Shown: positions 3,310 to 42,273 of the stretch, piece after piece
How the letters are laid out: each line of letters begins with the position of its first letter
How positions within the stretch are numbered: the stretch's first letter is position 1
IMG/VR virus record: IMGVR_UViG_2908959467_000004
Length of the DNA: 42,273 nucleotides
Reading direction: 5' to 3' (one strand)
From: a virus
Lineage: Duplodnaviria > Heunggongvirae > Uroviricota > Caudoviricetes
Program-made: the position numbers and the translations under genes
The notes under the pieces: model-generated
The model's input: only the letters and a program-made list of their open reading frames with translations
What the model was told of the DNA's origin: nothing
Database searches by the model: none

Positions 3310-4421
3310 GCAAGCCTCACAATATAGTTAAATGCGATGTTTTTGACGGTGTTTTCCGCGTTACCAGCAGCGTTAACGGTGATGGTGTGTCCATGTGAGC
3401 CAATCGCAACCGAGTGCGTATGAGCACCAATACCCACAGTATGTGTATGCGCCCCAGCACTTGCTGCAGTACCTGATACTGAGTGGGTATGCGCGCCCGC
3501 AGAATTCGTTGCACCTAAGTGAGTTTGAGCAGAGTTCGACGAAGCTATTCTACCGGACCTAACGTTAGCATTATCCCCCTGAGATATCGGATGCGTATGT
3601 GCGCCTGCTGAATCTGCTGTTCCACTAACGCTATGGGTATGCGCACCAGTGTTATTCGTAGATTTAGTTCCATAATCAAACGATGATGTGGTTTTCGTAC
3701 CCAAATCCGTATTGGATGCGCTGGCGCTGTGGGTGTGCGATTTAATGCCATCCTGTTCCTGAGACAATACGGCTCGACCACTGGCTGGCTTGCCCTTAAT
3801 CGTCCAGCCACGCATATCAGGGATCACGCCTGACGGATAAGCAACTGCAAGTTTCGGGTATGCAGATTTGTCAAAAGTCTGCCCCTGCATCAGGGCATAG
3901 CCAGACGGAACGGTATCTGATGGCCACGGGATCGGGGCACCTACAGGAAAGGTCGAATTATTTTCCAAACCAAGATATTTAAGGACATCAGCAACAGAGC
4001 TTTTTGCCAAAATATCTCGTCCAACCTGTGTCAGGTCAGCCAAATTAGCGGTATCTTGATTGGTAAAATACGGTAATTTGTTTTCGGATGCTGAAAGATT
4101 AGCAAGTGCGGTAAGTATGGTATTAATTCTCTGATAGTTCTTATCTAATGCAGACGACATTTTTGCGATAAAGCCGGCCTGATCGCCATCGTCCTGTACA
4201 TCCAGTCCACTTTCATTTGCTGTATATTGTGCCATTGCAGATGCAATAAAGCTGGCCTGCCGAATAACCTTATTGACTTGCGCACTGGATGCTTTCCCTG
4301 CTGTAAATCCGGATAAAAGCGCAGGCAACGCTTCCCATTCCTCCTGCGACATAACATTGGCATTTTTACCCGTTGCGAATGCTTTAAAGTCATTTTTTGC
4401 CATCAGAGTAATACTCCCCAT
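3306..4421 (-). CDS. tail fiber protein (T4 gp37/Mu S-like tip with His-x-His repeats)
   Basis: 371 aa; C-terminal repeats [56 protein letters not shown]; last gene of the baseplate module. Confidence 0.8.
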
Positions 4422-33869: not shown

Positions 33870-34139
33870 TTAAAATTCATTGAATTTAAAAAGACATTTC
33901 CCTATTGGATTGCCATAGTCTCTACATACCGAAATGCTGTCCCATACAGGCTGAGCCAAACACCCAAGAAAGAACCCAATAAGCGCAAAAATTATAATTT
34001 TGGGAAGAACACGATCCTTAGGACCTTCTTCACGTTCGAGCCATGCGCCACCAGCCCGAACTATTCTCCCTAAAATATAAAGAATGGGGAAAGCAATAAT
34101 ACCTATCAATGAAAGTATTCCGATACCAAAGCTAAACAC
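33870..34139 (-). CDS. small integral membrane protein, oppositely oriented moron
   Basis: 89 aa; hydrophobic helices ILSLIGIIAFPILYIL and IIIFALIGFFLGCLA; AT-rich; antisense to the replication operon. Confidence 0.5.
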   Translation of the reverse strand: MFSFGIGILSLIGIIAFPILYILGRIVRAGGAWLEREEGPKDRVLPKIIIFALIGFFLGCLAQPVWDSISVCRDYGNPIGKCLFKFNEF

Positions 34140-37167: not shown

Positions 37168-37460
37168 TGGCCTACGAACGTGAAAGCCTTATCGAAAAGC
37201 ACCTCGTCGCCGAAGTGAAAAAGGCTGGCGGGGTCGCCTTTAAGTTCGTGTCACCCGGTCGCCGCTCGGTACCGGATCGCATTGTCCTGCTACCCGGCGG
37301 TCGCATCGTCTTTGTCGAATGCAAAGCGCCAGGCAAACCACCACGGCCTGACCAGTTACGCGAGCACGAACGGCTGCGCGCGTTGGGCTTTACCGTGGTG
37401 GTATTAGATAGCAAAAATCTGGAGGGGATATTGTGCGGGGAGCCTATTACAACGAAATAG
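37164..37460 (+). CDS. VRR-NUC domain nuclease
   Basis: 98 aa from ATGATG at 37164 overlapping the upstream stop; PD-(D/E)XK-like core DRIVLL...VFVECK. Confidence 0.7.
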   Translation: MMAYERESLIEKHLVAEVKKAGGVAFKFVSPGRRSVPDRIVLLPGGRIVFVECKAPGKPPRPDQLREHERLRALGFTVVVLDSKNLEGILCGEPITTK

Positions 37461-38461
37461 ACCCTAACGCAGCACAATGGCTGCGTAACCTTATTGCTGC
37501 AGGTCATATCGCCCCGGGTGAAGTTGATGAAAGGAGTATCGAAGATGTCGCACCAGACGACTTGCGCGGATTCACACAGTGCCATTTCTTCGCCGGGATC
37601 GGCGTCTGGTCTTATGCTCTGCGTCTGGCCGGATGGCCGGATAACAAACCGGTCTGGACAGGAAGTTGCCCGTGCCAGCCTTTCAGCTCGGCTGGTAAAG
37701 GCGCTGGGTTTGATGACGAGCGGCACCTATGGCCAGCACTATTCCACCTCATCAGCGAGCGACGCCCTAAGCTGGTATTTGGCGAACAGGTTGCGGGAGT
37801 CAATGCCTGGTTCGATCTTGTACAAACTGACGTGGAAGCAGTGGACTACGCCTTTGGGCTTGTCCCGTTTCCGGCTGCGGGCGTCGGTGCCCCGCATATC
37901 CGAGATAGAGCGTATTGGGTGGCCGACGCCAGCGGCGAGCGATCACAGCGGTGGCGAAAGCGCCTCAATAGCATTGAGGAAGATGTCTGGAGATCGTCGA
38001 CCGTCCGGCAACACGCTACACAGCTCCCTGCGGAATTTTGCTCACCTAGCGGGGTGGTACACCCCAACCTGCAACACAAACCCACAGCCGGAGACAAAAC
38101 GCGGTCTAGAAACCTTAGCGGGACTATCCAGATTAGCGGGATGGCCGACAGTGACGACGATCGACAACAACCAAGTTCGTGCCGAGGGCGCAGCGGCCAA
38201 TCATACCGAACGGGGAACGACCCTCGGCGGCGCTGCGAGAATCTGCGGCCCAATACGATTAACGGCTGCTGGGATGGTGCTGACTGGCTCCTCTGCCGGG
38301 ATGGTCGCTGGCGGCCAGTTGAATCCGGCACATGCCCGTTGGCTAATGGGATTACCTCCAGAGTGGGACGACTGCGCGCCTACGGCAACGCGATAGTCGC
38401 ACCAGCTGCCGCAACATTCATCCGCTCGTTTATGGAATGCGCAGGATACGACCTTATTTAA
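37433..38461 (+). CDS. DNA (cytosine-5) methyltransferase, Dcm-like
   Basis: 342 aa; motif I FFAGIGV, motif [15 protein letters not shown], motif VIII-like [10 protein letters not shown], motif X-like YGNAIVAP; a second long ORF (37494..38396, +1 frame) with MTase-like motifs overlaps it. Confidence 0.7.
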
Positions 38462-38778
38462 TGCCACTCACATCTGGCATGATACCGTCCAGAAGGTAAT
38501 TGCTTATATACAACGGAGCCGCCCATGGCATAAGTATAAGCATGAAGTTTTGTCCAGAAGTCCCCATAAACTAGTATTGGGGCTAAAAATTTTGGATCGC
38601 TAACCATAGATGTAGCAGGAAGCTCGAAACCTTTAGAAAGAATGTTTACCAGTGAAGGGTAATTTTCAAAATCAGTGCTATTCCCGCCCACCTCTAAAGC
38701 ATCCAGTTCAAAGTCGAGCACTCCACCATTTTTGTAATACTCCGGAACAGTTAACCCTGATGTTAACAAAGTAGCCAT
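38458..38778 (-). CDS. hypothetical protein, oppositely oriented moron
   Basis: 106 aa; strong SD AGGAGG 8 nt upstream; lower GC; divergent from the helicase gene. Confidence 0.5.
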   Translation of the reverse strand: MATLLTSGLTVPEYYKNGGVLDFELDALEVGGNSTDFENYPSLVNILSKGFELPATSMVSDPKFLAPILVYGDFWTKLHAYTYAMGGSVVYKQLPSGRYHARCEWH

Positions 38779-38812
38779 TAAACAATCCTCCTGAATTTTA
38801 AAGGGTTACATT

Positions 38813-40207
38813 ATGCCCAAAGTTTTCACGCCTCGCCCCTACCAAGATCTAATTATCAACCACGAAATCGACATTCACCGCTGCAACATCTGGGCAGGGA
38901 TGGGGATGGGTAAAACCGTAGCGACACTCACCACGCTGGAAGATCTTTTCATGGCGGGCTCAGAGACACAGCCCGCGCTGGTCCTCGCGCCCCTACGCGT
39001 TGCAGCAAGCACATGGCCGGATGAAGCGCTGAAATGGGGGCATCTGCGCAATATCGAGGTGCAGCCGATTGTTGGTAACGCCAAAGCGCGCTCTGCAGCG
39101 CTGGCGAACAGCAACGCGAGCGTGTTCACCATCAACTACGATAACCTTGTCTGGCTGGTTGAGGAATTGGGAGAACGATGGCCGTTCGGTACTGTCATTC
39201 CAGATGAAAGCACCCGGCTAAAATCCTTCCGGCTGCGAGGTGGTGGTAAGCGCGCGGCGGCGCTGGGCAAAGTGGCGCATAAGTATGTCCAGCGCTGGAT
39301 AAATCTCACCGGTACGCCAGCACCGAACGGCCTGGTAGATTTGTGGGGACAATTGTGGTTTGTGGACCAGGGGCAACGTCTCGGGCGCACTTACGGCGCG
39401 TTTACCTCACGCTGGTTCAACTCGATACAGTTTCCGGGGCAGAGCTGGACCAAACTGGAGCCGTTTGCTCACTCACAGGCTGAAATACAGCGAGCGTTAG
39501 CCGATGTGACCCTCTCGCTGGATGCGGCCGACTGGTTCGATATCAAAGACCCCATCCATAACGTAATCCGCGTGGATATGCCGCCGAAGGCCCGTCAGCA
39601 GTATCGTGAAATGGAAAAGGAAATGTTCCTCGAGCTGAATGGCGAAGGCATCGAAGCACCGAACGCCGCGGCAAAGACACTGAAATGTCTGCAAATCGCC
39701 AGTGGCGCAGTATACACAGACGACACCGGAAGTTGGTCAGAACTGCATGACACCAAACTACAAGCGCTGGACAGCATACTGACCGAAGCAGCTGGCGCAC
39801 CTGTGCTGGTTGCTTATCACTGGAAACACGATCTTGAACGCTTGCTTAAAGCATTCCCTCGCGGTCGTCACCTCGACCAGGATCCACAGACACTGCGCGA
39901 CTGGAATTCCGGAAAGATTCCTGTTCTCTTTGCACACCCAGCCAGCGCGGGCCACGGCCTGAACATGCAGGACGGCGGAAACATACTGGTGTTTTTCTCG
40001 CACTGGTGGGATCTGGAGCAGTACCAACAAATTATCGAACGCATCGGGCCAACCCGGCAGATTCAGGCCGGACACAACCGCCCGGTGTTCATTCACCACA
40101 TTATCGCCGCCGACACTATGGACGAAATGGTGATGGAGCGGCGCAACTCAAAACGAACAGTGCAGGACATCCTGCTCGATGCCATGAAAAAGAGAGGTAT
40201 AGCATGA
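38813..40207 (+). CDS. SNF2/DEAD-like helicase
   Basis: 464 aa; PYQ motif, Walker A GMGKT, DExx box IPDEST; C-terminal helicase domain. Confidence 0.8.
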   Translation: MPKVFTPRPYQDLIINHEIDIHRCNIWAGMGMGKTVATLTTLEDLFMAGSETQPALVLAPLRVAASTWPDEALKWGHLRNIEVQPIVGNAKARSAALANSNASVFTINYDNLVWLVEELGERWPFGTVIPDESTRLKSFRLRGGGKRAAALGKVAHKYVQRWINLTGTPAPNGLVDLWGQLWFVDQGQRLGRTYGAFTSRWFNSIQFPGQSWTKLEPFAHSQAEIQRALADVTLSLDAADWFDIKDPIHNVIRVDMPPKARQQYREMEKEMFLELNGEGIEAPNAAAKTLKCLQIASGAVYTDDTGSWSELHDTKLQALDSILTEAAGAPVLVAYHWKHDLERLLKAFPRGRHLDQDPQTLRDWNSGKIPVLFAHPASAGHGLNMQDGGNILVFFSHWWDLEQYQQIIERIGPTRQIQAGHNRPVFIHHIIAADTMDEMVMERRNSKRTVQDILLDAMKKRGIA

Positions 40208-40404
40208 GCGAGAAACCCGACGATTTACTCACCCCGGATGAAGTATGCCAAAAGTTAGGTATTACACAGAAAACGCTATGTGAGTGGAATATTAAGCATC
40301 GTCATCGGGCTATCCTGGCACCAATTCGTTTCAGTGCAAAAGTAGTTCGTTATGAGCGCCGCAATGTCGACGCTTTTATTCAAAAGTGTCGCAGCCGGTA
40401 TTAA
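40204..40404 (+). CDS. excisionase/AlpA-like HTH protein
   Basis: 66 aa from ATG overlapping the helicase stop (ATGA); HTH LTPDEVCQKLGITQKTLCEW; convergent with and adjacent to integrase. Confidence 0.65.
   Translation: MSEKPDDLLTPDEVCQKLGITQKTLCEWNIKHRHRAILAPIRFSAKVVRYERRNVDAFIQKCRSRY

Positions 40405-42003: not shown

Positions 42004-42273
<270 letters not shown>

Follow-up and report, generated by a model that had tools for sequence, protein, structure and literature searches.

BstA is an experimentally validated abortive-infection defence encoded by prophages (Owen et al. 2021, PMC8585504), and integron cassettes with no function previously assigned have proved to code for defence against phages (10.1101/2024.07.02.601719). 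The locus described here has features in common with both. It belongs to an Escherichia coli prophage of ~41 kb, flanked by yfhH on one side and yfhL on the other, and contained in the window (the whole stretch of DNA analysed, 42,273 nucleotides). Between the genes for a DNA cytosine-5 methyltransferase (Dcm) and an SNF2-family helicase (SNF2), this prophage carries a gene for a protein of 106 amino acids (aa). The reading favoured here, at a probability of about 0.45, is that this gene is the payload of a compact antisense module in a hypervariable slot 5' of SNF2 in enterobacterial temperate phages, that it is expressed in lysogeny, and that its product is probably anti-phage, by binding rather than by catalysis. 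No earlier description of an SNF2-proximal hotspot was found in the literature; the 106-aa proteins are an uncharacterised family, carried as cargo in an apparently undescribed prophage hotspot.

The gene and its protein product

The initial annotation had noted a 106-aa gene lying antisense between the methyltransferase and the helicase, with a near-consensus Shine–Dalgarno sequence and a GC content below that of its neighbours, and each of these features is borne out (Table 1). The same coding sequence is annotated in RefSeq as a hypothetical protein (WP_000212683.1, E. coli BH100N). Its GC content is 0.42 overall and 0.40–0.44 across its length, against 0.56–0.62 for the flanking methyltransferase and helicase genes. 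Over a 601-nt query that includes the gene, the window is 100% identical to E. coli BH100N and 13 other complete genomes. The gene is rare, being present in 19 of 5426 complete E. coli genomes, with a 108-aa subfamily member in one more; related flanks occur in ~145 genomes.

Table 1. Features of the 106-aa locus, with positions and strands given for the window.
Feature	Position	Strand	Remarks
106-aa gene, CDS	38458..38778	-	ATG start; product acidic, pI 5.15; PHROG 28127
Shine–Dalgarno sequence AGGAGG	38787..38792	-	8 nt 5' of the ATG of the 106-aa gene; read directly from the sequence
DNA cytosine-5 methyltransferase (Dcm)	37433..38461	+	left flank; itself an optional sense-strand cargo, present in 8/80 relatives
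SNF2-family helicase	38813..40207	+	right flank; conserved anchor of the hotspot
Divergent spacer, 34 nt	38779..38812		between the ATG of the 106-aa gene and the ATG of SNF2; contains both ribosome-binding sites
Inserted cargo module, ~360 nt	38462..~38821		antisense gene, spacer and replacement SNF2 start/first codons ATGCCCAAA; extent approximate
Relic of the ancestral junction, GGATACGACCTTATTTAA	38444..38461	+	kept in the window; old ATG now ACG

In principle, a reading frame of this kind could be spurious, a chance product antisense to an AT-rich spacer, and the empty promoter and terminator scan described below would agree with this. The probability is vanishingly small; the conservation data already refute it. 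Homologues have lengths of 104–112 aa at identities of 25–97%, and their length is conserved across Gamma-, Beta- and Alphaproteobacteria. Twelve close homologues (64–97% identity), 11 of them exactly 106 aa long, come from Salmonella, Klebsiella, Enterobacter, Pectobacterium and Buttiauxella. An exhaustive profile search yields 55 cluster representatives, mostly of 103–119 aa, and named members include those of Providencia, Proteus, Vibrio, Xenorhabdus, Burkholderia, Paraburkholderia, Rhizobium and Dyella. All family members are acidic (pI 4.3–5.7). In comparisons with homologues of 58–71% identity, pN is 0.18–0.26 and pS 0.69–0.82, with synonymous sites near saturation; that pN is far below pS indicates, at the level of codon comparison, strong purifying selection. 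The strong Shine–Dalgarno sequence and the confident structural model (see below) also speak against a chance frame. The 106-aa gene is a real protein-coding gene. Searched with tblastn, its product has no match in isolate phage genomes, and among plasmids it matches two Burkholderia megaplasmids only.

The AlphaFold2 model, computed from a 46-sequence alignment, has a pLDDT of 95 and a pTM of 0.85. It consists of an alpha/beta domain, in the order beta-alpha-beta, three short helices, a short strand, three helices and a beta hairpin. Neither a signal peptide nor a transmembrane segment is predicted, and according to the model the protein is a soluble, acidic, single-domain alpha/beta protein. 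Near-invariant positions in the family alignment are G18, G19, E38, G50, F51, W75, G87, Y91 and A101, and the most conserved motif is GFELPP[TS]. The alignment contains no conserved Cys/His cluster, no nucleophile pattern and no catalytic-looking motif.

The one full-length match is to the profile of PHROG 28127 (E = 1.7e-59, residues 1–106 against profile positions 1–106), a family with no assigned function. Scans of the protein and 46 homologues against Pfam, NCBIfam and PADLOC gave nothing meaningful; for the 106-aa protein itself there is no PADLOC match at E <= 1, the BstA profile included, and membership of the BstA family is rejected on this basis. PDB sequence and profile searches returned chance-level matches only, a Foldseek search of the model against BFVD gave no match, and no similarity was found to any solved structure, anti-defence folds included. 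Homologues are named 'hypothetical' in every source, and literature searches on the accession WP_000212683.1 and on PDC-S42 (see below) found no papers. Among characterised proteins, then, the 106-aa protein has no relative that comparison of sequence or fold can detect. The profile and structure-prediction searches that the initial annotation had proposed as a check likewise found no homology to any housekeeping phage protein.

Some further candidates were considered and rejected. Longer family members offer no domain-fusion clue; two metagenome members (P0057 and P0031) comprise a tandem domain duplication (208 aa) and a protein with a C-terminal CxxC...CxxxxC zinc-ribbon tail (147 aa), and neither adds an informative domain. 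A DNA mimic is not supported by a net charge of merely about -4. For a type II toxin–antitoxin system, an adjacent co-oriented partner gene is absent: the gene stands alone in the slot, and a Vibrio homologue forms a single-gene integron cassette.

A variable cargo slot upstream of SNF2

The prophage has a lambda-like layout, with a LexA/CI-type repressor followed by an early replication operon on the + strand, and the integrase on the - strand. The operon comprises DUF2800, DUF2815, Nmad5, DNA polymerase A, ANR, a methyltransferase, VRR-NUC, Dcm, SNF2 and a Xis-like HTH gene; the 106-aa gene lies within it on the - strand, which agrees with its earlier description as antisense to the early operon. 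The HTH gene is a short Xis/AlpA-like open reading frame between SNF2 and the integrase (40204–40404, +), annotated in the O55:H7 relative and not in BH100N. At the right end of the window, the host ferredoxin gene yfhL (42013–42273, +) marks the attachment-site side of the prophage.

The contents of the slot were surveyed in 80 IMG/VR prophage contigs with SNF2 at least 94% identical. Antisense cargo is found at 37 loci and no cargo at 16, where VRR-NUC abuts SNF2; the rest carry sense-strand genes. The antisense genes fall into at least six unrelated families: multi-pass membrane proteins of 214–265 aa (13 loci), the 106-aa family (six), PDC-S42 (six; PADLOC E = 6e-40), DUF6338 membrane proteins (five), BstA (four; PADLOC E = 2.5e-110) and a family of 164–171 aa (three). 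The BstA cargo is 99% identical to the slot gene of the E. coli O55:H7 prophage. Members of the 106-aa family in the slot form three deeply diverged subfamilies (106, 108 and 104 aa), with mutual identities of 35–45%. At least seven types of sense-strand cargo occur: Rha-like (11 loci), Dcm alone (five, with three more in which Dcm accompanies the 106-aa family), TIR-like (four), Dam or other methyltransferases (four), HNH-like (two) and PAPS-reductase-like (one). Known defence systems among these alternatives are thus BstA, PDC-S42 and, with a PADLOC E-value of 1e-6, the TIR-like effector.

Cargo type and orientation are related. Genes for the lytic cycle or DNA modification lie in sense orientation, whereas cargo with a validated or candidate role in protecting the lysogen is antisense. 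There is one exception: the TIR-like candidate defence gene is in sense orientation, so the rule is not absolute. In one example (L067 3021–3938, +), this 305-aa cargo with its weak TIR-effector match is followed by a hairpin with a T-run. The uncharacterised antisense cargos (L056, L079, L036, L102, L037 and L073) comprise the multi-pass membrane proteins, the DUF6338 proteins of 200–206 aa and the 164–171-aa proteins, which have an N-terminal hydrophobic segment. None of these three groups has a PADLOC match; superinfection exclusion and abortive infection are candidate functions for them.

The window contains a second antisense gene of low GC content (0.34–0.44), at 33870–34139 (-) between the Nmad5 gene and the DNA polymerase gene. 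Its 89-aa product is predicted to have two transmembrane helices and is matched by neither Pfam nor PADLOC. At the same position, the O55:H7 prophage has a larger antisense gene (at least 209 aa, truncated by the edge of the locus), and in Providencia and several E. coli prophages the gene found there is a PDC-S25 SIR2 gene on the sense strand. Relatives thus vary at this second slot as well, which brings the cargo hotspots of the prophage family to at least two. In the E. coli prophages, PDC-S25 in the second hotspot is paired with several different SNF2-slot cargos, i.e. the two assort independently.

The anatomy of the insertion can be read by comparison with the cargo-less relatives. In these (L052, about 3975–4002), the sequence GGATATGACCTCATCTAA contains both the stop of the upstream gene and the overlapping start of SNF2 (MTSSKIF); judged by this overlap, SNF2 is translationally coupled to the upstream gene. 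The final codons of the upstream gene in the cargo-less relatives read ...D-L-I-stop, and all sense-strand genes 5' of SNF2 in relatives end in this way, an ending imposed by the overlap of their stop with the ancestral start of SNF2 (ATGACCTCATCTAA). The tail survives as a relic in the Dcm gene of the window, whose stop is convergent with that of the 106-aa gene, with an overlap of 4 nt. Homology to cargo-less relatives restarts at ~38819–38822, at about the K-I/V-F-T-P-R-P codons of SNF2. Taking the restart at ~38821 together with the relic, the module extends to ~360 nt. It supplies the helicase with a new ribosome-binding site and a new start, ATGCCCAAAG (MPKVF), and each type of cargo brings its own version of the first SNF2 codons. 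Spacer lengths to SNF2 are similar elsewhere, with 34 nt in Klebsiella and 32 nt in both Providencia and the second E. coli subfamily.

A consensus scan of 37900–39400 found neither a sigma-70-like promoter nor an intrinsic terminator, and scans around the 106-aa gene and in the integrase and early regions gave nothing above shuffled expectation. CATAAT, a -10-like hexamer on the minus strand, overlaps the SNF2 start and has no -35 partner. Nor does the 5' end of SNF2 show any sign of an embedded conserved promoter, as its synonymous diversity is not reduced; third-position diversity is 0.33 there and 0.27 for the whole gene. The initial annotation had the 106-aa gene diverging from a 'helicase promoter region'; with a gap of 34 nt, an empty scan and a helicase that appears to be coupled in cargo-less relatives, this description is not confirmed.

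The position beside SNF2 is maintained over considerable divergence. The same SNF2-divergent slot holds homologues in Klebsiella (71% identity), in Providencia (43%) and in the second E. coli subfamily (35%), all of them without Dcm. A role as a Dcm partner, whether Vsr-like or controller-like, is rejected on the grounds of these same-slot homologues. That homologues down to 35–43% identity sit 32–34 nt divergent from SNF2 would be in keeping with a core phage function, in which the protein serves the replication module as an accessory factor of the SNF2 helicase or of Dcm. Against this, the family is missing from 74 of the 80 contigs with near-identical SNF2, the Klebsiella and Providencia versions have no Dcm neighbour, and the gene is antisense to the very operon it would serve; members with neither SNF2 nor Dcm nearby also occur in Vibrio cassettes, Dyella, Rhizobium and other contexts (see below). 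Such a function is highly improbable.

The data support the view that the 106-aa gene is moron-like accessory cargo and not a core phage gene. It is inserted between genes that are directly adjacent in relatives (the 16 cargo-less loci), and its base composition is unlike that of the surrounding phage genes. The initial annotation had proposed a lysogeny-expressed accessory factor, from the position of the gene next to the methyltransferase and helicase. The accessory part stands, given the presence of the family in only six of the 80 contigs and of BstA, PDC-S42 and membrane proteins in the same slot; a functional link to the methyltransferase is not supported, given the same-slot homologues that lack Dcm.

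Other genomic contexts and possible functions

Outside the slot, members of the family are found in a range of settings. One member, from Vibrio vulnificus and 35% identical, forms a cassette of its own in a chromosomal superintegron, with attC-like repeats of ~130 nt on either side (gene at L020 1862–2191, repeats at 1665–1797 and 2183–2315). The two arrays (L019 1–11111 and L020 1–9191) look like superintegron segments, with 9–12 repeat copies per locus separating small same-strand cassettes; other cassettes include PhD/ParE, GNAT acetyltransferases, a GyrI-like gene, Tae4 with a partner, and an ankyrin gene. In Dyella sp. (L124 1467–12557), an integrase-bounded island has a family member between a complete Lamassu system (LmuA E = 8e-34, LmuC E = 6.5e-6, LmuB E = 4e-114) and PDC-S06 (E = 3e-161). 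The Dyella island also has two unannotated genes (262 and 454 aa), which are possible additional candidates for defence.

A Rhizobium prophage region and one phage contig each have a family member packed beside a SIR2 gene matching PDC-S25 (E ~1e-76). The SIR2 genes of these two loci are 75% identical and the family members 40%; gene order differs, and the third genes are unrelated. An obligate partnership with the PDC-S25 SIR2 gene is rejected: a 90%-identical SIR2 locus (L110) has no family member, and only two of 13 viral SIR2 loci have one in their 4–6 kb flanks, in both cases in the separate SNF2 slot. A metagenome contig that is Burkholderiales-like by the names of its homologues has a family member near a lambda Ea47-like gene, a serine recombinase and nSTAND3-Mrr. 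On a Burkholderia megaplasmid, the family member lies in a run of small same-strand genes, near MazE/ChpB. Further contexts are an antisense singleton in another prophage, a position beside HEPN/MNT and antitoxin genes, and one beside a DUF4365/PDC-M02A-like gene. Family members are antisense to the surrounding phage genes in unrelated prophages as well.

Among ~10 contexts sampled, the defence-gene neighbours of homologues include Lamassu with PDC-S06, the PDC-S25 SIR2 gene twice, and nSTAND3-Mrr. The distribution shows a mobile accessory gene that stands alone and is carried, in the company of anti-phage genes, as cargo of hotspots, islands or cassettes. The Vibrio cassette, the Dyella island and the SIR2 and nSTAND3-Mrr neighbours favour a function that depends on neither SNF2 nor Dcm.

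Small anti-defence binders and sponges of the Tad, Acb and Ocr type resemble the 106-aa protein in being ~100 aa, soluble, acidic, non-enzymatic and phage-borne. In a counter-defence role, the protein would be a small phage-made binder that neutralises a host immune system (e.g. a SIR2/NADase-type or other effector) or sequesters an immune signal. It resembles many anti-defence proteins in its small size, its acidity, its single domain and its lack of a catalytic motif; its gene lies in the early region amid DNA-modification genes, family members are tight against PDC-S25 SIR2 genes in two contexts, and the run of small genes on the Burkholderia megaplasmid points the same way. However, the 106-aa gene is antisense to the early operon, whereas clear lytic-cycle or anti-restriction cargo is sense and the validated defence BstA is antisense. 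Moreover, what a bacterium would gain from a counter-defence gene in a Vibrio chromosomal integron cassette, or in the Dyella island between Lamassu and PDC-S06, is not obvious, and the SIR2 association is not obligate. On balance, counter-defence is unlikely.

Alternatively, the protein could be an orphan immunity or antitoxin-like protein, or another lysogenic-conversion factor, which guards the lysogen from a toxin (an interbacterial effector or a bacteriocin) or alters host physiology. Its size, acidity and strong diversification resemble those of immunity proteins, toxin and immunity cassettes are nearby in the Vibrio superintegron arrays (ParE/PhD; Tae4 with its partner), and a toxin–antitoxin pair lies 1 kb from the family member on the Burkholderia plasmid. 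Yet a cognate toxin gene is adjacent in none of about 10 independent contexts, no Pfam immunity family is matched, and the recurrent neighbours are anti-phage genes. The probability of this role is low.

The initial annotation had named immunity, anti-restriction and toxin as possible roles. Of these, immunity or defence is the role most in line with context and orientation. Since DNA-modification cargo in the slot is on the sense strand, anti-restriction is less likely, and a toxin role is unsupported because there is no partner gene.

In the favoured reading, of a lysogeny-expressed anti-phage payload, the 106-aa gene would be transcribed in the lysogen while the sense-strand early operon is repressed. 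Its product would benefit the lysogen, most probably by blocking superinfecting phages, and would act stoichiometrically, binding a phage or host component and degrading nothing. Stoichiometric binding is the most likely mode because there is no catalytic-looking motif, nor are there membrane features. On induction, read-through from the early operon across the antisense gene might turn the 106-aa gene down and so spare the phage's own lytic cycle. Both the expression during repression of the early operon and its dampening on induction are suggested by the antisense placement. The precise insertion between genes that overlap in relatives also favours the defence reading.

Several observations weigh on the other side. 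The protein has no PADLOC match, and its gene has no sigma-70-like promoter or terminator nearby (37900–39400). At 106 aa and with no enzymatic or membrane domain, it is very small for a stand-alone defence; in size and acidity it is closer to what is typical of anti-defence proteins. The argument is also one of guilt by association, and the same slot carries counter-defence-type cargo such as methyltransferases.

A more ambitious form of the defence reading is possible but doubtful. Here, a soluble protein of new fold would by itself constitute a complete anti-phage defence, among the smallest known, by binding a component of the invading phage; it would be delivered by a compact antisense module that rewrites the helicase start, with self-immunity provided by early-operon read-through, and the slot would be a new and rich defence hotspot of a widespread family of enterobacterial prophages.

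Comparison with known systems

If the 106-aa protein is anti-phage, it would represent a very small defence with a new fold, in a family with members in the prophages, integron cassettes and defence islands of diverse Proteobacteria. The SNF2-upstream slot would then be a useful hunting ground for more defence genes, with its uncharacterised cargos sharing a slot with BstA and PDC-S42. If the protein is ordinary or inactive, the locus is still a cleanly delimited moron with no function assigned. The anatomy of the insertion, with its coupled junction, new helicase start and sense/antisense rule, illustrates how temperate phages may add lysogen-protecting genes inside an essential operon while leaving the operon intact.

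Like BstA (PMC8585504), the 106-aa protein is the product of a single prophage-encoded gene, and sister E. coli prophages, that of O55:H7 among them, carry a BstA homologue in exactly this slot, likewise antisense. The two proteins have no sequence or fold relationship. BstA has 309 aa, DNA-binding-type domains and a cognate DNA self-immunity element (aba), whereas the window protein has 106 aa, one domain and no recognised self-immunity element.

Temperate-phage morons (reviewed by Cumby et al. 2012, as cited in PMC8585504) resemble the 106-aa gene in being extra genes between genes that are neighbours in related phages, with atypical composition and opposite orientation. Classical morons carry their own promoter and terminator; neither is recognisable at the 106-aa gene, where the flanks are tight (4-nt overlap and 34-nt gap).

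Phage-defence integron cassettes (10.1101/2024.07.02.601719; 10.64898/2026.03.17.712381) are paralleled by the 35%-identical homologue, an attC-bounded cassette in the V. vulnificus chromosomal integron, although the window copy resides in a prophage and not in an integron.

The slot itself can be compared with the hotspots for defence genes in P2-like phages and P4-like satellites (Rousset et al. 2022, PMC9122126). In both cases, a fixed position with conserved phage-gene flanks holds diverse cargo of low GC content, including known defence systems. The phage family of the window differs in its replication module, consisting of DNA polymerase A, DUF2800, DUF2815, VRR-NUC and SNF2. It also differs in the placement of its cargo, which lies antisense inside an operon at a translationally coupled junction, in modules that give the helicase a new start.
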